Origin: a virus
DNA: 64,000 bases
UHGV virus genome: UHGV-1383976
Direction: 5' to 3' (one strand)
The notes under the pieces were generated by a model. It was not told the DNA's origin. It did no database searches and saw nothing but the letters and a program-made list of their open reading frames with translations. A program made the translations under genes and the position numbers. Shown here piece by piece: positions 13,886-40,073 of the stretch (its first letter is position 1; every line of letters begins with the position of its first letter).

Positions 13886-13973
13886 GCCCCATCTTCAGTT
13901 CTATAGCTGGTGAAGATGGATAGGCGATGAAGTATAGCAATAATATGGCATGAGAACTATGATAGTGTTTCAT

Positions 13974-14061
13974 GAGAGCGTAACTCAGTCGGTAGAGTTT
14001 TATAGCGTGAAGGGATATGCTATTGAATGCCCTTAGTCGCCAGTTCGAATCTGGCCGCTCT
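13974..14061 (+). ncRNA. tRNA-like element with aberrant anticodon region
   Basis: good acceptor (gagagcg/cgctctc), D-arm (tagagtt), and T-arm (gccag-ttcgaat-ctggc); ~17 extra nt where the anticodon arm should be. Confidence 0.4.
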
Positions 14062-14091
14062 CATTAAAAATATATATGAAGAGGAATAGTT

Positions 14092-15322: not shown

Positions 15323-16099
15323 TTGCGTGGTAAAAAGGTTTTATGTAATTGTAATGATGGTTTGACAAGTGAGTTCTTAAATTATTTTGTCAATAATTTT
15401 GATTGTCTTGAACTTGATGAACTTGTTTGTTTGACTTATAATAAAGATGGAAAGGCATATAAGTATACCAAGCGTCCTAAAGTTGACCTTATGGTTGAAC
15501 CACTCATCGGTTCTGGTGCATTTGATTCACAGGAAGGCCGAGATGCTCTTGCCGCTTGTGATATTGTTATAACAAATCCTCCCTTTAGTCAATTTCGAGA
15601 TTTTGTCAATTTGATTTTGTCTTACAAAAAAGATTTTTTGATAATTGGCAGTAAAAATGCTATTACCTACAAAGAATTTTTTCCACTTTTAATGAGTGGT
15701 AAAGTTCATATTGGCAATTTCAATGTTTCTACTTTTAAACAGCCAGATGGTACTGATAAAAAATTTGGTAATATCGGTTGGTTTACGACTCTTTCTGTTG
15801 TAAAAGCGGCACAACCAATTCCTTTAACAGCAACCTATGATCCGCAAAATTATCCTACTTATGATAACTTCCGTGCAATTGAAGTAAGTCGCACAGCTAA
15901 TATTCCTAAGGACTATGATGGCGTAATGGGGGTTCCTATTTCATTTCTGGACAAATTTTGTCCTACTCAATTTAAAATTGTTGGATGGAGTCGTCATAAT
16001 GACGAAGGAATGGATGGCGGATACTGGACGGGTGGTTGTGCTGATGCTACTATAAATGGTAAGCAAGTTTATCGCAGAATTTTGATTCAGAAAATTTGA
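15323..16099 (+). CDS. Dam-like N6-adenine MTase paralog (start uncertain)
   Basis: IVITNPPFSQ motif; the homologous DEFYTQ motif lies upstream (15269–15286) in frame, right after the TAG. Confidence 0.5.
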   Translation: MRGKKVLCNCNDGLTSEFLNYFVNNFDCLELDELVCLTYNKDGKAYKYTKRPKVDLMVEPLIGSGAFDSQEGRDALAACDIVITNPPFSQFRDFVNLILSYKKDFLIIGSKNAITYKEFFPLLMSGKVHIGNFNVSTFKQPDGTDKKFGNIGWFTTLSVVKAAQPIPLTATYDPQNYPTYDNFRAIEVSRTANIPKDYDGVMGVPISFLDKFCPTQFKIVGWSRHNDEGMDGGYWTGGCADATINGKQVYRRILIQKI

Positions 16100-16124
16100 T
16101 TTTTATTAAAATTTTCGATATAAT
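16096..16124 (+). promoter_or_regulatory. family-A promoter
   Basis: TTGATT-17-TATAATATATATAGAAAG. Confidence 0.6.
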
Positions 16125-16339
16125 ATATATAGAAAGTTGAGAGAGAAACTTCCAGAGGTTGCGAATTAGCTATTCAATACAAAATCTCTCAAAATGATAA
16201 GGTTTTCGGTGTTTTACTTATCGGTTTTCTATGCAAAATGGTTCTAACAAGCCAGCGTGCGCGCGAGTAAAAGTTGTTAATAAGCGGTTGGCATACGTGA
16301 TAAGCCGTTGCCCCAGCGAGAAGATTTAATAAATCTTCT

Positions 16340-16699
16340 TTGTTGGTGGTGTTTAATAAAAATGCGTCAGTAGCAACCCAGTGGTATGATTTGATTATAG
16401 AAAAAGATGATAAATTTGAAACAGTACAATGTAAGTGTACTGGTTCTCAGAACAACGTCATTAGTCTAAAGTCTTGTGGCGGTACAAAAGGTGAAGCTTA
16501 TGACAATGTTCTTAATCATTCTGGGCTTGATAAATTATTTTGCGTGGATATAAATGGTAATATGTACGTGATCCCGATGTCAGAGGTTGTGGCATCTGGA
16601 AATACTAAGCAAATTACTTTACGTACTGAACCCACAGCAAATAATCAAGGTTTTCAAACTCATAAATTTCGAGTTCAATTCTCGTTTCAAGCGTCGTAA
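16340..16699 (+). CDS. hypothetical protein
   Basis: ORF with TTG/GTG starts only. Confidence 0.3.
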   Translation: MLVVFNKNASVATQWYDLIIEKDDKFETVQCKCTGSQNNVISLKSCGGTKGEAYDNVLNHSGLDKLFCVDINGNMYVIPMSEVVASGNTKQITLRTEPTANNQGFQTHKFRVQFSFQAS

Positions 16700-16750
16700 A
16701 CCCGTTTCCTTCGAGAGTAACTGGATCGACACCAGTCTGACGCACCATTT

Positions 16751-16824
16751 CGGGAATGTGGTGTAATGGTAGCACACTTGATTTGGGGTCAAGGAGAGTG
16801 GTTCGAATCCAACATTTCCGACCA
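16751..16824 (+). tRNA. tRNA-Pro(TGG)
   Basis: anticodon arm cttga-tttgggg-tcaag; T-loop ttcgaat; CCA. Confidence 0.6.
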
Positions 16825-16828
16825 AGAT

Positions 16829-16915
16829 GCTGAGTTCCCATAGTGGTCGATTGGAGCGGTCTTGTAAGCCGCAGACTTCGTGTCCGCATCAGTTCGAATC
16901 TGATACTCAGCTCCA
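16829..16915 (+). tRNA. tRNA (anticodon TGT, long variable arm; Thr-like/atypical)
   Basis: acceptor gctgagt/actcagc; anticodon gcggt-cttgtaa-gccgc; 15-nt variable arm; T-arm atcag-ttcgaat-ctgat. Confidence 0.5.
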
Positions 16916-16919
16916 CTAT

Positions 16920-16995
16920 AAGGGAGTAGCCCAATAGGTAAGGCAGCAGTCTCCAAAACTGAAGATTAAAGGTTCGAGTCCTTTCTCTCTTGCCA
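16920..16995 (+). tRNA. tRNA-Trp(CCA)
   Basis: anticodon loop ctCCAaa; T-arm aaagg-ttcgagt-ccttt; CCA. Confidence 0.6.
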
Positions 16996-17029
16996 ATAAT
17001 TTCATTTTTCAAATTTCCTTTCTTAAAAT

Positions 17030-17059
17030 TTGACTTTTTCAAAAAATCTTGATATAATA
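17030..17059 (+). promoter_or_regulatory. family-A promoter driving the noncoding region
   Basis: TTGACT-18-TATAAT; downstream transcript is ORF-free. Confidence 0.55.
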
Positions 17060-17079
17060 TATACATAAGATAAAGAAAA

Positions 17080-17805
17080 GAAAAAGTCAAAAGGAGGACA
17101 ATGCTAGTGCCACCTACACGTGGTGTCCTCTGTTTTCGCTAAGAGCGCTGGCATATATCCAATTAAATAATACTAACTCAGTGAAGACGGAATTCGATGT
17201 TCCGGCTGAGAAATTCCAGCTAGCACAGCAGAAACGAAACAAGGATACTTGTGGATACTGGACTGAGAGGCCATCGAGAGATGAGCCGAAGTAGAGCGGT
17301 CGCTCAAGTGGGAAGAAGAGCAGGAATTGTGCTGAGTGAATCGCAAGCAAACGCAGCCGTGGAGTGGCGAGCGCAATAGACAGCTTGGTGAATAGCCAAG
17401 CCGAACCCAAGTTAGGTCTTAGTTGGTGCCTGTGGCAATCCTTGGGAAAACCAATAAGCTCGTTCCGTTGAGACGACAGGGAATGTGAAATCTGTCTTTG
17501 ACACTCTACAGCATCCGAGTAGCGGAACACAACGGGGACTTATAGAAAAGATGGTCAGTAATAATAGAAATTGCTATTTTATCTTTCTGAACATCCCGTG
17601 AAAGGTAGAGGTAATCAACCCTCTGGCGGATTAGGCGACATTAGACACTTGGGCTATCCAAGAGTAACAAGTCAATGTTGTTGCTGGGGTAAGAAGTGTA
17701 TGGGCGACGGCCTGTATGCTCAGACTTATCTCCCGCGTGGCAGAATATGCTTGAAGGTTTATCGAGGTAGGGCGAAGGCCCAGTAATATTTAGTTGGATT
17801 TATAT
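17080..17805 (+). ncRNA. candidate large structured ncRNA (~700 nt, GC-rich, ORF-free)
   Basis: no credible ORF on either strand; GC content clearly above flanks; promoter upstream; tRNAs on both sides. Confidence 0.45.
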
Positions 17806-17806
17806 G

Positions 17807-17878
17807 GCAGGACGAGAAGGTTCTCCATTTGGCCTCATAAGCCAGATTTCGTGGGTTCGATTCCCACTCCTGCATCCA
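17807..17878 (+). tRNA. tRNA-Met(CAT)-like (short D-arm)
   Basis: anticodon ttggc-ctcataa-gccag; T-arm gtggg-ttcgatt-cccac; CCA; 4-nt D-loop. Confidence 0.45.
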
Positions 17879-17881
17879 TAT

Positions 17882-17956
17882 GTCGTATTGGTGTTAGTGG
17901 CAGCACGATAGCCTTCCAAGCTATATGGAGGAGTTCGAGTCTCCTATACGACTCCA
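17882..17956 (+). tRNA. tRNA-Gly(TCC)
   Basis: acceptor gtcgtat/atacgac; anticodon atagc-cttccaa-gctat; CCA. Confidence 0.65.
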
Positions 17957-18102
17957 TTTTAGAAATGTCTTGAACGACAGGAGGTTTTGCTTATGGATAT
18001 AACAAAATCTAATGAGGACTGCGGTCCAACGAACAGGACAAAGAGTTGGGCCTCTCTATAAAAAGGCCCTCGTAAGAAAATTTGGAAAGGAAGTAAAGTA
18101 AA

Positions 18103-18516
18103 ATGAAGTATTATAGTGATGTTCTTCATACGCTGTTTGATACTCAGGATGCGCTTGAGGAAGCCGAAGCGAAGAAAACCGCGGCAGATGCTGAGAAAGT
18201 ACATGCAAAAGAAACGGCTAGAAAACGTAGAGAAGAAGATAAAGAACGTTTCCTTGAGTTGAGAAAGAAGTTCAATAAGATCAGCACTGAGTATGACAAG
18301 ACATCTAAAGAGTATATGGACTATGCTGATAAGATGATGCAGGAGTATTCATTAGATGCTGTGCTGGATTGGCTTTCTGATGCTTTTCTTTATGATTGTG
18401 CCACAGCTAAGACGAAAGCAGATGCATCATCTACCACAACTGCTACCACGAAAACTGCGCGGGAGCCTGAAAACTTGGGAGAAATTCTTGCCCGTATTTT
18501 TGAGGATATGCGCTGA
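18103..18516 (+). CDS. hypothetical charged coiled-coil protein
   Basis: RBS + ATG; ORF. Confidence 0.5.
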   Translation: MKYYSDVLHTLFDTQDALEEAEAKKTAADAEKVHAKETARKRREEDKERFLELRKKFNKISTEYDKTSKEYMDYADKMMQEYSLDAVLDWLSDAFLYDCATAKTKADASSTTTATTKTAREPENLGEILARIFEDMR

Positions 18517-18519
18517 GAA

Positions 18520-19080
18520 TTTTGAATAAATTGGCGCGATTGATTATCAAATCGTCCCACGGAGTTGAAGCTAAAACGTTAGCGGTGAATATGGCCATTC
18601 CCGCAAGCTCGGCGGTTTGTTAGGCAACCGCGCGGATGTAAATTATTGATAGGAAACTTTGGTTTAATTTACTCACTGAAGTTCTCCAAAAGTCGAACTA
18701 GAGCCTAAACTGAGTTCGCAGTGCTGAGGCCGGCATACGCTCGGAGAGGATGCGTTATTGAGCTAATTGGATTAGTGTCAATGTGAGGCAACGGTGGCCA
18801 ACTCTTAGAGAGCCACGCGACAGAGTTATGCTAAAAGGCAATGCCCAGTATCGGTGCCACTAGGGTTGATAGACAAGTAGTAAAAGTCAGGTGAAGACAA
18901 TACCGGCTGACATAATTGGGACGTAGTCATAGGCGTAGGCCGTGCCAAAACTAAAAATCAAAGTGTGCGGCACACGAAACCCAAGTCAGATGCGGGCGAT
19001 TGAAACGGCGCCCTCAACCCATATAAGGTTTTACAAGAGATTTTCCTTGTGTTAGACTAAAAAATCTCTTTTTTGTATAA
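18520..19080 (+). ncRNA. candidate large structured ncRNA (~560 nt, GC-rich, ORF-free)
   Basis: no ORFs; GC-rich; immediately upstream of tRNA-Gln. Confidence 0.4.
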
Positions 19081-19084
19081 ATTT

Positions 19085-19159
19085 AGAGGTATAGTGTAAT
19101 TGGCAACACATCGGCCTTTGACGCCGTATTTATAGGTTCGAGTCCTGTTACCTCTGCCA
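19085..19159 (+). tRNA. tRNA-Gln(TTG)
   Basis: acceptor agaggta/tacctct; anticodon loop ctTTGac; CCA; terminator follows. Confidence 0.6.
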
Positions 19160-19266
19160 ACAGTTCCACATTAGAAAAACCTAATGTGGACTTTTTTATA
19201 TATATCAGCTACAAAAAATCTACTTAGAAATGCGGGCAACCGCAAAACACATCAAAGGAGGAGCCT

Positions 19267-19890
19267 ATGGAAGAATTAGGTCTGTTTTTGGGTTTGGGAG
19301 ATGATGCTAACTATCAGCTTGCTAATCCAAGCCTGTTAGCGTATTACAAAGAACTCAATGAGCGTCGTCTCTGGCTCGATTGCGAGGTAGATGATGAAGC
19401 GATAGGTGATATGTGCCGCCAGATTATTCGCTGGAATAAGGAGGATGACGCAATAGAACCTTCGAAGAGGAAAAAGATTATTATCTATTTTGTCAGCCCC
19501 GGTGGCAGTTTAGACAGCTATCTATGGCTCAAAGACGTAATAAATCTGAGTATTACTCCGATAGTTGGTATTATGATGAGCCGCACAGCTAGCGCGGCTG
19601 CTCTGATATATCTTCATTGCCACGAACGCTATGCTCTTGAGAGTTCAAAAATCTTGTTCCATTATGGTTCGATTTCTCTCGCACAAGACGCCGCAAATGC
19701 GATTGAGGCGGTAAAAAATTATGAGCAGGAAATCAAAAAGTTTGTTGACGTAATTCGTGAGCACTCTGACTTTTCAGATGATTATATTCGTGATAAGTTG
19801 GTCAAGGATTGGGAACTTACGGCTGACGAAGCTCTCGAACATGGCATTGTTCAAAAAATAATAAGCGATATCAGCGAACTCTGGAACTAA
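19267..19890 (+). CDS. ClpP-like (S14/crotonase-fold) serine protease
   Basis: YFVSPGGSLDSY...SRTASAAALIY resembles ClpP INSPGG...AASMGA. Confidence 0.55.
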   Translation: MEELGLFLGLGDDANYQLANPSLLAYYKELNERRLWLDCEVDDEAIGDMCRQIIRWNKEDDAIEPSKRKKIIIYFVSPGGSLDSYLWLKDVINLSITPIVGIMMSRTASAAALIYLHCHERYALESSKILFHYGSISLAQDAANAIEAVKNYEQEIKKFVDVIREHSDFSDDYIRDKLVKDWELTADEALEHGIVQKIISDISELWN

Positions 19891-19901: not shown

Positions 19902-20222
19902 ATGGATAAATATACTGGCTATTATGAGTGGCATCCATCAGAACAAGGACTTGAGGATTTTTATTCTGGCCTTTTTACACCTGCAGGGATGGGCTTGGTT
20001 GAAAACCAGTATTTGATTATCTATGACTCCGAAGATAAGGTTATAGATAAATATTTTTGTAAGAACAATGAATTTGAAAAGGTTCATTATATGGCGCTTC
20101 AAAGCGATTACTGTGGGGTTATCAAACCACGCAATGTATATCAGGAATTGGCTATTCATTCCCTTATGGATAGACGTGTTCCCGTAAAAGTTTTGGGTGG
20201 CGTCTTTGGCTCGGGTAAATAA
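19902..20222 (+). CDS. phoH: PhoH-like ATPase, exon 1 (ends inside the Walker A GGVFGSGK)
   Basis: ORF stops immediately after GSGK; continuation found at 21150. Confidence 0.55.
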   Translation: MDKYTGYYEWHPSEQGLEDFYSGLFTPAGMGLVENQYLIIYDSEDKVIDKYFCKNNEFEKVHYMALQSDYCGVIKPRNVYQELAIHSLMDRRVPVKVLGGVFGSGK

Positions 20223-21149
20223 CTTGCCCCTTCTTAGGGCGACCTAAGAATGAAAATCGCGTGAATTGCTGGAAGCCTAAGCCGCAAGGTATGGTAATCA
20301 GCAGCCAAGCCGTTTTAGCAACGGAAGGTTCAACGACTATCCCGGCAGGGAGTAGGGAGCAATCCCGAAGCGCGCGACAACTTTTGTTTTGTTTTTATTT
20401 TAATAAAGGAGGTGAGGTTATAAATAAGTGGACAGATGAACAAAAAGCAGAAATTATTGATGATTATACCAAAAAAGGTATGACTTTGGCAGAGATTGGA
20501 AAAAAATTTCATTCTAAAGGAGATACAATTAGTAAATATCTAAAGTCTTGGGATATTCCCATCAATCGTAGAAAGAAAAATCGGCTTATGAATGAAAAGT
20601 TTTTTTCTATAATTGACTCAGCTGAAAAGAGTTATTTTCTGGGCTTGTTATTCGCTGATGGTTCAGTTGTTTTAAATAGCGAGCGGGCGCCATATGTTTC
20701 TTTAGAATTAGTAGAAAAGGACAAAGAAATATTAGAAATTTTCCGTTCATTATTAAATTGTCAAAATGACTTATACTACAATAAGCGAGATAATCGGAAG
20801 AATGGAACATATACTTTTGGAGTAAGAAGTCAATTACTAGCTGATGATTTAGCTAAATTTAATATCATTCCAAATAAAACTTATGAAACAACCCAAGTAA
20901 TTTTCCCAGAAAATTTTCTTATTGATTTTCTAAGAGGGTATATTGATGGCGATGGCTCTATTTATCAAAATGTTTATAAGGCCGTTTGGAATGGACAAGA
21001 TGCTAAACGAATTATAAACATTCTCTATTTAAAGAACGATGGCATTGCGCTCTCTCGAAAACGAGAACGAGCTAAGTTAGCTCAACAAAACAAAAGTTGA
21101 TGATATAGTCTAATCCCTTTTTAAAAATATCGGGAAACCGAGGGTATAA
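20223..21149 (+). mobile_element. putative group I intron with LAGLIDADG homing endonuclease
   Basis: interrupts PhoH between Walker A and downstream motifs; ~180-nt structured non-coding 5' part. Confidence 0.55.
20420..21100 (+). CDS. LAGLIDADG homing endonuclease (two motifs) with N-terminal HTH
   Basis: LGLLFADGS and LRGYIDGDGS; no canonical start after RBS aaaggaggtga; frame open from 20261 through intron RNA. Confidence 0.65.
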   Translation: MNKWTDEQKAEIIDDYTKKGMTLAEIGKKFHSKGDTISKYLKSWDIPINRRKKNRLMNEKFFSIIDSAEKSYFLGLLFADGSVVLNSERAPYVSLELVEKDKEILEIFRSLLNCQNDLYYNKRDNRKNGTYTFGVRSQLLADDLAKFNIIPNKTYETTQVIFPENFLIDFLRGYIDGDGSIYQNVYKAVWNGQDAKRIINILYLKNDGIALSRKRERAKLAQQNKS

Positions 21150-32095: not shown

Positions 32096-32142
32096 ATAAA
32101 AATATAAGATAATTGAGATTTTACAAAAGGAGATCAATTCAA

Positions 32143-33138
32143 ATGATAGGCGTAGACCTAAATCAATATCGTAATCTACCTGATTACGCACAACTTAAAA
32201 AGGATGGTTATGAGTTCGCCATTATAAAACTGGCAACTGGTGTAACCTTTACTAACCCGCTTTTTCAAACCCAGTTTAGTGGTTGTAAGTCAGCCGGCCT
32301 AAACATCGGCGTTTATACTCGTGCCGACAAGCAACCTACAAGCGGCGCACAGGAAGCTGCCTATGCACTCAACATACTAGGTAATCGTCATGTAGATTTC
32401 CCCATCTACTATGACGTAGAGGGAGAAACACTAAATCTTTCAAAAGACAAGCTGACTCAGCTGGCTCTTGATTTTGGTAAAGCAATAAAACGCGCAGGAT
32501 ATCGCTGGGGTATTTATACATCCCGCGCACATTTCAAATGCTTTGACCTTGACAGGCTGAAAGAAGCTGGCGCATCTATATGGTGCGCCGCCTATGATAA
32601 TCAAGCTGGTATGGAGTGCGACATTTGGCAAAAGTCAGATAAAGGCTCTATTACAGGATATTCTGGACCAGTTGATGTAGATGTTTTATATAATGAAAGC
32701 ATAATACAGAAGGAGGAAAATAAAATGAGTTTGAATTTGATAAAATGTTTTCAAACACAAGGCGCGTGGTATAATCAAACCACAAATGGAACTCCTGTTG
32801 GGGTATGTTGGCACGATACCGGCGCTGGTAACCCAACATTGAAGCGCTATGTCCAGCCATCTACTAATGACCCCGATTATAATTATTTTATAAACCTTAT
32901 CGGCAAGAACAATAATGGCAATCACTGGAATCGTATGGCCGCAAATCAGGCAGGATTGAACGCTTGGATTGGTCAACTCGCGGATGGCAGTGTTGCTACT
33001 GTTCAGGCTGGCCCTTGGGAAAAGCGTCCTTGGGGTGTTGGCTCTGGCAGATACGGTTCACTTAATGGTGATAAGAATGTGCCTAATGATAAGTTTTGGA
33101 TCCAGTTTGAGATTACATCGTTGCTAGTCTCCGCGTAA
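32143..33138 (+). CDS. endolysin exon 1 (GH25 muramidase + N-terminal half of amidase_2)
   Basis: IGVDLNQY...GYEFAIIKAT (GH25); VCWHDTGAGN...GSLNGD (amidase_2 front half). Confidence 0.65.
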   Translation: MIGVDLNQYRNLPDYAQLKKDGYEFAIIKLATGVTFTNPLFQTQFSGCKSAGLNIGVYTRADKQPTSGAQEAAYALNILGNRHVDFPIYYDVEGETLNLSKDKLTQLALDFGKAIKRAGYRWGIYTSRAHFKCFDLDRLKEAGASIWCAAYDNQAGMECDIWQKSDKGSITGYSGPVDVDVLYNESIIQKEENKMSLNLIKCFQTQGAWYNQTTNGTPVGVCWHDTGAGNPTLKRYVQPSTNDPDYNYFINLIGKNNNGNHWNRMAANQAGLNAWIGQLADGSVATVQAGPWEKRPWGVGSGRYGSLNGDKNVPNDKFWIQFEITSLLVSA

Positions 33139-34182
33139 AGCGATTTGCGTGTAAAAATACATATCGAATTGCTGGAAAACCGTAAAGCTATTCTTGCTAC
33201 AACGTAAGGATGAAACAAGCCTAAGCGTGAAAGCCGCGAAAGCAGAAAGAAAAGAATAGATGGCGTATGGTTAAATCCTAAGCGCTATATAATTGGCAAT
33301 CAGCAGCTAAGCCTTGAATAAAGGAAAGTTCAACGACTAAGTGCCTTGCAAGCGATTGGCAAGGACAGTGGTATGCGGCTCATTGAGCCGAAGATATAGT
33401 CTGTGCTTCGAGAGAAATCCGAAGGAGCGAAAGCTCAGTGCGGGGTAGCGCCCAAAAAGTTTATTTTGAATGGAGAAAGAAATGACTTATAAAGAATTTA
33501 TTGACAATATTTTAGAAGAACGAGGACGTTTTTCGTGTGGAGAGGAATATCACGAGAGGCATCACATTCTTCCTAAGTGCAAAGGCGGCACAGATGATAA
33601 AGAAAATTTGATTGACTTATTTGCTAAAGAGCATTTTATTGCGCATAAATTGTTAGCTGAAGAAAATCCTGAAGATATAAGTTTGGTTAGGGCTTATCAA
33701 TGCATGACAATAGCTAGAAATCCAAAAACTGCACGATATATTGCTTCTTCTGAAGAGTATGAGGAAGCAAGAAAAATGTTTTCAGAAGCTCTCAAAGAAT
33801 TATATAAAGACAAAACAAAGCATCCAAGCTATGGCAAACATATTAGTGAAGAAAGAAAACAACGAATTAGTGAAGCCAATAAAGGAAATAAGTATTGCGT
33901 TGGCCGGAAAGTTTCAGAAGAAACACGCAAGAAAATAAGTGAAGCCAATTCGAACCCTTCCGCCGAAACGCGTGAAAAAATGAGTCAATCTCAAAAGAAG
34001 CTCGCACGGTGGGATGGAGCAAAGAATCCTAAAGCTCGAAAAGTTGTTCGTCTTTCTGATGGGAAAGTTTATGATTGTATTAAATATGCCGCCGAAGAAA
34101 ATAATATTCCTCTCTCCACTTTCAAAAGTAGATTACACAAAGGCAAAGGCGATTTTGTGTATTTCGAAGACTATCAAAATAA
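33139..34182 (+). mobile_element. putative group I intron carrying an HNH endonuclease
   Basis: 330-nt GC-rich ORF-free 5' segment + HNH ORF; splits the amidase_2 domain. Confidence 0.55.
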
Positions 34183-34192
34183 ACAGCACTAA
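33470..34192 (+). CDS. HNH homing endonuclease with NUMOD-like repeats
   Basis: HHILPKCKGGTDDKENL..HF.AH HNH motif; repeated ISEE/EANKG modules. Confidence 0.7.
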   Translation: MEKEMTYKEFIDNILEERGRFSCGEEYHERHHILPKCKGGTDDKENLIDLFAKEHFIAHKLLAEENPEDISLVRAYQCMTIARNPKTARYIASSEEYEEARKMFSEALKELYKDKTKHPSYGKHISEERKQRISEANKGNKYCVGRKVSEETRKKISEANSNPSAETREKMSQSQKKLARWDGAKNPKARKVVRLSDGKVYDCIKYAAEENNIPLSTFKSRLHKGKGDFVYFEDYQNKQH

Positions 34193-36358: not shown

Positions 36359-37564
36359 ATGCTTGATGTAAAAATTTTTGCACGTTGTATTGAACAGACC
36401 GCTGAAGAGCAAATATACGATTTAGCCGCCTCGTCGATAGGAGAAAACGCGCACATACGAATAATGCCGGATGCGCACGCTGGTAAGGGATGCGTAATTG
36501 GAACTACTATGTTAGTAAAAGATAAGATTTGCCCTAATATTGTTGGCGTTGACATTGGATGCGGAGTTACTGCTGCAAAAATTAACTGTCCTTTGATCAT
36601 GGATGAGTTAATGTTTTTGCGCGAACGCCTTGTAGATGGCGCAATACCATCAGGAAGCACTATATACAACGAATTTAGAGATTGGGATCCTTTTTTTGAA
36701 CTTGGCGCAACTATCCTTCGTAAGTTGAGATGTAAGGAAATTTACAATAAGTGTGAAATTGATTATTTTGCTAAGTCTATGGGAACACTCGGAGGCGGAA
36801 ATCATTTCATTGAAATAGACGAAGACTCCGATGGCAATCATTGGATTGTTGTACATACTGGCTCGCGCAATTTGGGCCTTCAGGTAGCAAAGTATTATCA
36901 AAACAGAGCAGAAATGCGAATTCTTGAAGAATATACTCACAAGCGTAATGCAGCTATCACTACGCTGAAAGAGGAAGGCCGCCAGCGTGAAATTTCAGAG
37001 GTATTAGCCTCTATCAAAAAAGATGCGCCATCTAAGTTTGATTATTTAGTAGATAATGACTATAATAACTATCTTCGCGATATGGCACTTTGTCAGAAGT
37101 GGGCAAAATATAACCGAGCAAATATTATTTATAACATTGCTGCAATTTTAAATCGCAAAGTTACAATGACAGTTGAGTCAGTTCATAACTATATAGATTT
37201 TTCAACTCAAACACCTATCCTCCGCAAGGGCGCAATTTCGGCTAAGTATGACGAGATTTGTCTTATTCCACTCAATATGCGGGATGGTACGCTACTGTGC
37301 CGTGGAAAAGGTAACTCTGATTGGAACTTATCAGCTCCACATGGAGCCGGACGACTTATGTCTCGCGCTCAGGCAAGAAAAGAATTATCTTTAGACGAGT
37401 TTGAAAAATCAATGGACGGCATTGTGTCAAACGTTTGTGCAGAAACCATTGATGAAGCACCTTTCGCTTACAAGAATTGGGAAGAGATTGAAGAAGCTGT
37501 GCGGCCTACCGTTGAAATTATTGACCACTGGAAGCCAATTTTCAATTTTAAGGCGATGTCTTAA
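36359..37564 (+). CDS. rtcB: RtcB RNA ligase (3'-phosphate/5'-OH)
   Basis: MPDAHAGKG, GVDIGCG, GGGNHF.E, HTGSR.LG, HNY, RKGA, SAPHGAGR motifs. Confidence 0.8.
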   Translation: MLDVKIFARCIEQTAEEQIYDLAASSIGENAHIRIMPDAHAGKGCVIGTTMLVKDKICPNIVGVDIGCGVTAAKINCPLIMDELMFLRERLVDGAIPSGSTIYNEFRDWDPFFELGATILRKLRCKEIYNKCEIDYFAKSMGTLGGGNHFIEIDEDSDGNHWIVVHTGSRNLGLQVAKYYQNRAEMRILEEYTHKRNAAITTLKEEGRQREISEVLASIKKDAPSKFDYLVDNDYNNYLRDMALCQKWAKYNRANIIYNIAAILNRKVTMTVESVHNYIDFSTQTPILRKGAISAKYDEICLIPLNMRDGTLLCRGKGNSDWNLSAPHGAGRLMSRAQARKELSLDEFEKSMDGIVSNVCAETIDEAPFAYKNWEEIEEAVRPTVEIIDHWKPIFNFKAMS

Positions 37565-39116: not shown

Positions 39117-39143
39117 ATATATAGAAAGTGAGAGAGAAATATG

Positions 39144-39221
39144 GGCCGGATAACTCAGATGGTAGAGAACCAGTGCGGTTAGGCGCTGGAGGAGGCGGTG
39201 GTTCGAATCCACCTCGGCCCA
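39144..39221 (+). tRNA. atypical tRNA-like (7-bp anticodon stem, 6-nt loop GGTTAG)
   Basis: perfect acceptor ggccgga/tcggccc and T-arm ggtgg-ttcgaat-ccacc; non-canonical anticodon arm. Confidence 0.4.
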
Positions 39222-39224
39222 ATT

Positions 39225-40073
39225 AGATATGAAGGCGACATACAGTTATTATAGTCGCCGGACGTACTGCTCCGTCCATTACGAACAGAGCAGCCCCGCA
39301 AAACGAGGGTGAGAGTTGAGTTTGTTGGTTTTACTTGAAACCGCCGTCGGGGTAAGTGGCGTTACATCTTACCAAAAAAATCCGTCTGACTGCAGTAAGG
39401 GCGGTTGGTTTGTAGGTTTGCCAATAGGTATAAGTCTAGATACCAATAAAATACTTACCAAAGAGGAGTAATATGGCTGAAGTCCTCCAGCGTGGTTGAT
39501 ATGTTGAAATGCCTAGGCCACGCACATATGTCAGTTTAGTTTAACGAGGGAAAACAACGCCCGTCAAGGCGTAATTTCGGGTTCGAGTCCCGAAACTGTC
39601 CTTGGTTTGACAGGCCAAGAAATTTGTCAGGTGCGGCCCTTTGTCGCCGGTCGAGACTCCGTCCGGAAATGAGCTACGTCTAAGTAAGAAGCGTGAACTT
39701 AGCGCTGATGTGCGTGATGCATCGGTTGCGTGTCCAAAACACGACAGGTTTGGTTGAGTTTTCTACACAAAATTCAATTGGGTCAGGCCGCCCACAGGAT
39801 GGCCGCGGGTTCCACTCCCCGAACGAAAAACAATCGGGAAATCTCTTGTTTTTCTCAATTTTGTTAGTAGTTAGTCGCATTGATGAAATTGCTTTTTGGA
39901 GTAAAGTTGTGAGTAGCTAAAGAAATGACAATTCTTTTTCTACTCAAAAAGCCAAGTATCCGCCTCTGCTTGGACATCCGCGCGAGGTTGCGTGTTGATG
40001 AAAAGCGTGGAAGGCAGTTATATAATGGGGACTGCCGCATAGTTGGTTTAGGAGAGTTGCCAGCTACGGAAAT
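39225..40073 (+). ncRNA. candidate large structured ncRNA (~850 nt, GC-rich, ORF-free, with tRNA-like modules)
   Basis: no ORFs; embedded T-arm-like cgggttcgagtcccg; same transcription unit as the flanking tRNAs. Confidence 0.45.

Follow-up and report, generated by a model that had tools for sequence, protein, structure and literature searches.

A full-length gene for ROOL RNA among the tRNA genes of an uncultivated tailed phage

What is encoded by several hundred nucleotides that lie among the tRNA genes of a phage and offer no convincing reading frame? The question is raised by a block in the virus genome UHGV-1383976, of which a stretch of 64,000 nt (the window) was analyzed. A preliminary description, made from the sequence by eye, had placed this block at 17080-17805, behind a promoter, and had proposed that it specifies a large structured noncoding RNA of the GOLLD or ROOL kind, or else of a new class.

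The block between the tRNA genes

The surroundings of the block are as had been described: tRNA-Trp lies upstream, tRNA(CAU) and tRNA-Gly lie downstream, and a promoter precedes it. The following features were assigned to this part of the window:

16751-16995: genes for tRNA-Pro, tRNA-Thr, and tRNA-Trp (ARAGORN)
17030-17058, + strand: putative sigma-70-type promoter, TTGACT-17 nt-TATAAT with an extended −10 TG (11/12 consensus matches)
17059-17152, + strand: leader of about 93 nt between promoter and ROOL, with a hairpin (17093-17131) followed by UUUU (17133-17136)
17153-17800, + strand: ROOL RNA, 648 nt, full length (Rfam RF03087, covariation)
17801-17878, + strand: tRNA-like gene (anticodon CAU) directly adjoining the ROOL 3′ end; cloverleaf proper at 17807-17873 (ARAGORN)
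17882-17956, + strand: gene for tRNA-Gly (UCC) (ARAGORN; Rfam tRNA, 53.3 bits)

When the region 16000-19500 was scanned for promoters, the site at 17030-17058 scored highest, and it is identical in the relatives L001 and L013 (see below). Promoter-like sites as such were not above chance in this region (7 found, 6.3 expected). The absence of a credible ORF over about 750 nt also stood up to scrutiny. Apart from shorter ones, the block contains two ORFs, 17114-17530 (− strand; 138 aa) and 17571-17786 (+ strand; 71 aa), and neither matched a Pfam family at E ≤ 0.01, which agrees with their having been called spurious. Two other statements had to be adjusted. The GC content, said to be clearly higher than that of the genome, is indeed higher (46.6% for 17153-17800 versus 39.8% for the window), but moderately so; only 7% of segments of 648 nt reach the same value. 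Likewise, the block as delimited exists, but the structured RNA proper comprises 17153-17800, and position 17805 is already inside the next tRNA-like gene.

The leader is conserved in L001 and L013 and absent from more distant ROOL loci. The stability of its hairpin is weak and unremarkable (−15 kcal/mol; z between −1.2 and −1.7); judged by its letters, it looks, together with the U4, like a weak terminator or like a stem that stabilizes the 5′ end. No Rfam family matched the leader at E ≤ 1 and, being conserved in the immediate clade only, it was rejected both as a known element and as a part of the ROOL. A possible protein-coding start within it, an SD-like AGGAGG plus ATG (13-codon ORF at 17101), was rejected as a gene as well; it lies in the stem of the leader hairpin and has a 3-nt spacer.

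Identity and fold of the RNA

ROOL was described in 2017 as an ornate RNA of ~581 nt that occurs in phages and prophages as well as in some bacterial replicons, often beside tRNAs (Weinberg et al, 2017, PMC5737381; see also Cousin et al, 2017, on ROOL, as cited there). The searches with the ROOL and GOLLD models (cmsearch) that had been suggested in the preliminary description gave opposite results. With the whole window as query against Rfam 15, the ROOL family (RF03087) matched with 271.8 bits (gathering score, 99.1; E = 4.4e-61) over the entire model (positions 1-574 of 574), and this was the sole large-RNA match. GOLLD (RF01998) matched neither at its gathering score nor, with permissive filters on 16990-18110, at E ≤ 1; the permissive rescan of this segment against Rfam at E ≤ 1 returned, besides ROOL, two tRNAs only. 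Of the highly conserved (upper-case) positions of the consensus, 149/190 are identical in the window, and the family motifs GUGAAGA, GGAUAC, CAAUAGAC, CCAAUAA, GAGUAGC, UUCUGAA, GUGAAAG, GUAAUCAA, AAGAAG, GCUCAGAC, and GGGCGAAGGCCC were all found.

The expectation of a large structured RNA was therefore correct, and the block is a typical copy of ROOL, a family already described, and not a new class. The prior of the preliminary description had included GOLLD and novelty, and length and tRNA context would suit GOLLD, too; the missing GOLLD match at E ≤ 1 together with the full-length match to ROOL rules out both, leaving them a probability close to nil. GOLLD is also a large ornate phage RNA encoded beside tRNAs, and also forms an RNA-only cage, but its sequence and fold are unrelated to those of the ROOL in the window. 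With the RF03087 family, the window copy shares the closing helix, the junctions, the conserved motifs, the variable linker, and the phage/tRNA-island context. It differs from the family in length (648 nt versus a mean of 581 nt), and in having its own consensus promoter, the 93-nt leader, a 45-nt extension of one helix, and a loop of 12 nt where the consensus has GAAA.

To place the RNA among its relatives, 61 loci retrieved by two motif scans of IMG/VR were used, 29 of which were run against Rfam. ROOL was present in 25 of these 29, full-length in 23 (244–400 bits) and cut by the locus end in two (125–134 bits). Because the window copy scores inside the range of the other full-length viral ROOLs, its score is ordinary for a viral ROOL. 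L017, L025, L045, and L047 were false positives of the motif scans, without Rfam match. Loci of the L017 type stem from the second scan (TTCTGAA..GTGAAA..GTAATCAA) and are not ROOL; the motif is antisense in a 372-aa ORF, without Rfam match. This chance occurrence of the ROOL core pattern, antisense in a conserved 372-aa ORF, was seen in L017 (9940-9974, − strand), L019, L022, L029, L030, L036, L040, L052, and L058.

Except for L054, all of the 25 other viral ROOL loci carry tRNA genes in the flanks that were fetched. A tmRNA gene was observed in the same tRNA island as the ROOL in L002 (1537-1961), L004 (5658-6081), and L007 (1076-1498), in each case a few hundred nucleotides downstream of the ROOL, and in L006 (1911-2226), there about 2.3 kb upstream.

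L001, L013, and L011 derive from one metagenome and are related to the window phage at ~96% identity. In the two complete copies (L001 and L013), the ROOL is 98.1–98.3% identical to that of the window, versus 88–97% for the flanks. Among these relatives, every interpretable substitution at Rfam-paired positions retains a standard pair (GC to GU, AU to GU, or GU to AU); the other substitutions mostly fall into 17542-17583, within the variable linker. The remaining ROOLs are 66–79% identical to the window copy, over short stretches only. A blastn search with 17000-17960 against 50,697 GenBank phage records yielded a single 53-nt match to a tRNA and none to ROOL, and megablast with 18001-43000 against GenBank phages returned nothing. 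The pattern of substitutions bears on the idea that the block is protein-coding after all, via the 138-aa or the 71-aa ORF or via an alternative genetic code. Both ORFs do exist, but they lack a Pfam match, the relatives vary in keeping with RNA pairing and chiefly within the linker, and the RNA model explains the whole block, so that a coding function has hardly any probability left.

The fold was addressed by threading the window sequence on the consensus structure of RF03087. In the window, 129/159 consensus pairs are canonical; of these, 61 are identical to those of the consensus, whereas one side differs in 11 and both sides differ in 57. For covariation, 20 distinct ROOLs (the window copy and 19 other viral ones) were aligned with plain MAFFT, and the Rfam structure was transferred via the window row. 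Standard pairs made up 68.7% of the cells, compared with 53.0% after shuffling, and in 118 of the 154 pairs, both sides varied. The covariation score was 0.424 versus 0.176 ± 0.007 for shuffled alignments, none of 500 of which scored as high. When the 3′ partners were slid by 1–3 columns as a control, the score went down to 0.10–0.21, and an alignment of 11 sequences gave the same picture. Covariation across homologous phage loci, an analysis proposed in the preliminary description, is strong in this alignment. The minimum free energy of the ROOL stretch was −210.3 kcal/mol (z = −3.98), and 0/20 shuffled sequences were equally good. The following parts of the architecture are referred to below or frame it:

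17159-17174, + strand: 5′ strand of the closing helix P1, partner 17782-17797 (Rfam threading)
17770-17781, + strand: conserved hairpin GGGC-GAAG-GCCC adjoining P1 (helix 30, 100% paired)
17530-17584, + strand: A/U-rich variable linker, a low-confidence loop region of the model and counterpart of the disordered internal linker of env-120 (Kretsch, 2025)

All 16 pairs of P1 have both-side changes among the 20 ROOLs, and the unconstrained MFE fold recovers P1, too. A long-range helix between ~17335-17356 and ~17738-17766 (helices 11–13) threads poorly in the Rfam register, with 32–47% of the cells paired; the MFE fold favors a shifted register, and the Rfam consensus is itself non-canonical there. 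This is a detail and no threat to the identification as ROOL. The RNA of the window folds into the P1-closed, multi-junction ROOL architecture.

Elements at the sites of cage contacts

ROOLs were shown by cryo-EM in 2025 to form hollow, protein-free cages via kissing loops and A-minor contacts; those of env-120 and E. faecalis are octamers, and that of L. salivarius is a hexamer (PMC12286853, PMC12990946, PMC12515178). The length of the apical hairpin (P7/P10) differs between hexamer- and octamer-forming ROOLs (PMC12990946). Long-range complementarities between loops, annotated as pseudoknots in 2017, were shown in 2025 to be the intermolecular bridges B1 and B4 (PMC5737381, PMC12286853). In env-120, B4 is formed by G307-A310 with U332-C335, B1 by AAUC of the L2 loop with GAUU following UCUGAAU, and B6 by G565:C566′ (PMC12286853). 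The contact residues were taken from Supplementary Table 2 of Kretsch (2025), and the bridges were mapped by local motifs, on the basis of 650 of the 659 nt of the env-120 sequence. The corresponding elements in the window are:

17188-17204, + strand: L2 hairpin, the loop GAUG (17196-17199) of which is complementary to CAUC at 17592-17595; equivalent of bridge B1
17383-17401, + strand: apical hairpin GCUUGG-UGAAUAG-CCAAGC, called P7 by Kretsch and P10 in the review of 2026
17423-17427, + strand: loop UUGGU with its complement ACCAA at 17450-17454; equivalent of bridge B4, a conserved kissing loop ("second circle")
17475-17496, + strand: hairpin with the 12-nt loop GGAAUGUGAAAU, which replaces the consensus GAAA tetraloop (A-minor donor, bridge B2)
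17607-17624, + strand: hairpin capped by the conserved loop GUAAUCAA, which in env-120 provides bridge B5 by adenosine stacking
17635-17684, + strand: clade-specific extension of a peripheral hairpin (45 nt versus 5 in the consensus) with an extended stem
17698-17717, + strand: L18 hairpin with a GACG tetraloop (17706-17709) versus a U(C/A)GCU pentaloop; site of the symmetric kissing loop B6 between half-shells

Compared with the env-120 octamer (PDB 9MDS; PMC12286853), the window RNA has, as far as its sequence tells, equivalents of B1, B4, and B5 as well as a self-complementary dinucleotide in L18. B1 covaries, being GAUG:CAUC in the window and AAUC:GAUU in env-120. Among 14 distinct pairs of loop and segment, complementarity was greater for a loop's own partner than for swapped partners (permutation p about 0.001); the automatic extraction used for this comparison had overly strict landmarks and mis-called some loops. 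The close relatives alter B1 to wobbles only, as in L001, where A17197 to G leaves a G.U pair; in one clade (L002/L004/L009), there is no clear match. In the alignment columns of B4, the UGGY:RCCA pairs are standard in 17–19 of 20 sequences, the Y:R position covaries (UA in 11, CG in five), and A17450 to G in L013 yields U.G.

At L18, the window has GACG (core CG) and env-120 has UUGCUAA (core GC). The GACG tetraloop leaves just a 2-nt self-complementary CG available for contact. It recurs in L054, L015/L061, L042/L031, and L038 on covarying stems, and because the same loop is thus found in several diverged clades, it represents a real subtype; the U(C/A)GCU type is that of L018, L020, L021, L039, and others. 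Both forms retain a self-complementary core (GC or AGCU versus CG), and this switch from GC to CG across viral ROOLs lends some small comparative support to the intermolecular contact at this site.

The interfaces reported for the ROOLs of E. faecalis and L. salivarius (PDB 9J3T and 9J6Y; PMC12990946), namely, L2-L13′, J11/9-L11′, L12-P3′, L14-P7″, and L15-L15″, correspond to elements of the window RNA as well. L15 of E. faecalis is a kissing loop of 4 bp, whereas 2 nt are self-complementary in the window. Those two ROOLs are chromosomal or megaplasmid copies of cultured bacteria; the window copy resides on a phage contig of the lytic type.

Altogether, three contact elements deviate from the consensus: L18 is GACG, the A-minor donor loop is enlarged, and the apical hairpin lacks its bulge. 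The enlarged 12-nt loop occurs in the window clade only. As the apical hairpin has no equivalent of the bulged C263 of env-120, bridge B3 is unmappable in the window ROOL. At the site of the extended peripheral hairpin, L004 and L054 have a shorter insertion. Such deviations, and a score of 272 bits, toward the low end of what viral ROOLs reach (244–400), are what a decaying, non-functional ROOL relic carried along in a tRNA island might look like. Yet the match is full-length, the RNA has changed less than its flanks among the relatives, its substitutions preserve pairing, the promoter is conserved, and the GACG loop recurs in diverged clades on covarying stems, all of which makes a relic very improbable.

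With the B1, B4, B5, and B6 elements in place, the window ROOL most likely forms a homo-oligomeric cage, by analogy to the ROOLs of known structure; the three deviating contact elements speak against it. A more specific notion is that the window clade together with L054, L015/L061, L042/L031, and L038 constitutes a distinct ROOL subtype marked by the GACG L18, to which the window clade alone adds the enlarged loop, the extended helix, and a tRNA-like module fused to the 3′ end; the geometry or stoichiometry of the cage may then differ, or tRNA-like arms may be displayed on it. This notion is tentative and, as a whole, rather doubtful.

The 3′ junction, the proposed transcript, and the phage

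The gene downstream of the ROOL is atypical. The tRNA(CAU) has a 6-bp acceptor stem and a 4-nt D loop, and its Rfam tRNA score of 29.1 bits is exactly at the threshold; in L013, the T loop is degenerate. In the window, 0–6 nt separate the gene from the 3′ end of the ROOL. A tRNA starts within 40 nt downstream of the ROOL in 8/15 loci (the window and L001-L014), which does not apply to most loci of the second batch. The next good terminator-like site is at 19165-19200, after tRNA-Gln.

These features suggest the following course of events. Transcription would start about 7 nt past the −10 box, near 17065, and the transcript would span the 93-nt leader, the 648-nt ROOL, the tRNA-like (CAU) element, and tRNA-Gly; cotranscription with the latter is probable because no terminator follows before about 19165-19200. 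Against this course speaks the leader hairpin with its U4, a weak terminator by appearance, which would be met ahead of the ROOL. Given the short spacer, cleavage by RNase P at the 5′ end of the tRNA-like element, as in tRNA processing in general, would set the 3′ end of the ROOL near 17800-17806. Copies of the RNA may then associate via loop–loop and A-minor contacts into a hollow homo-oligomeric cage, like other ROOLs do.

The same junction would also permit an action chiefly in cis, with the ROOL forming the 5′ portion of a joint precursor with the tRNA and no free RNA being released; the tRNA-like (CAU) element would stay attached, and the assembly would display or store tRNA-like modules. 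The minimal spacer is compatible with this, as is the proximity of a tRNA in about half of the 15 loci, and the atypical tRNA(CAU) may be a poor substrate for RNase P. Moreover, 3′ fusions, including a tRNA precursor, leave octamer formation by ROOL intact, as related in a commentary on Ling et al (PMC12515178). However, the nearest downstream tRNA is 80–1,300 nt away in many other ROOL loci, so that fusion is not a trait of the family, and in L013, the ROOL is intact despite the degenerate T loop of its tRNA-like element, which suggests that the ROOL is independent of the latter. Action in cis is therefore considered unlikely, and release of the ROOL by RNase P is the preferred course.

As to what the cages do, published ideas include the encapsulation or sequestration of macromolecules, for example, tRNAs or ribosomal particles. 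Following this speculation in the literature, the likeliest role of the ROOL would be that of a high-copy RNA assembly of the phage, which sequesters or organizes macromolecules of translation (tRNAs, ribosomal particles) during infection. Taken as a whole, including the proposed transcript and cage, the block is explained best, and with a high degree of confidence, as a ROOL gene (RF03087) that an uncultivated tailed phage carries in its tRNA island.

The window contains phage tail, protease, and RtcB genes and 15 tRNA genes. The host of the uncultivated phage is probably a Firmicute; this assignment to a Firmicute/gut phage is a loose one, as it is the homologues of endolysin and RtcB that point there. 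The phage region that harbors the tRNA island also has genes for an RtcB-type tRNA splicing/repair ligase (36359-37564, + strand; PHROG 1075, E = 7e-122) and an EcoRI-like adenine methyltransferase (15323-16099, + strand; Pfam, E = 2e-70). Two group I introns were observed on the + strand, at 20207-20482 and 33075-33424 (Rfam, 66.7 and 71.2 bits), each with an ORF for a homing endonuclease (LAGLIDADG, 20261-21100; HNH/NUMOD3, 33470-34192); the second intron starts within the 3′ end of an ORF for a GH25 lysozyme (32113-33138). ARAGORN further made some odd tRNA calls on the + strand, at 39142-39222, 39530-39601, and 13973-14064, among them one with a 4-base anticodon (GUUA), one with an undetermined anticodon, and one 92-nt "tRNA-Phe," which is without Rfam match.

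Little of this is new with regard to ROOL as such; the family, its fold, its assembly into cages, and its habit of residing in phage tRNA islands have all been published. The locus is a clean and complete specimen, both its promoter and its 3′ junction are well defined, and the phage, of the 130-kb class, carries RtcB, many tRNA genes, and self-splicing introns as well. As such, the locus could become a further case in which to test the role of ROOL cages in infection.
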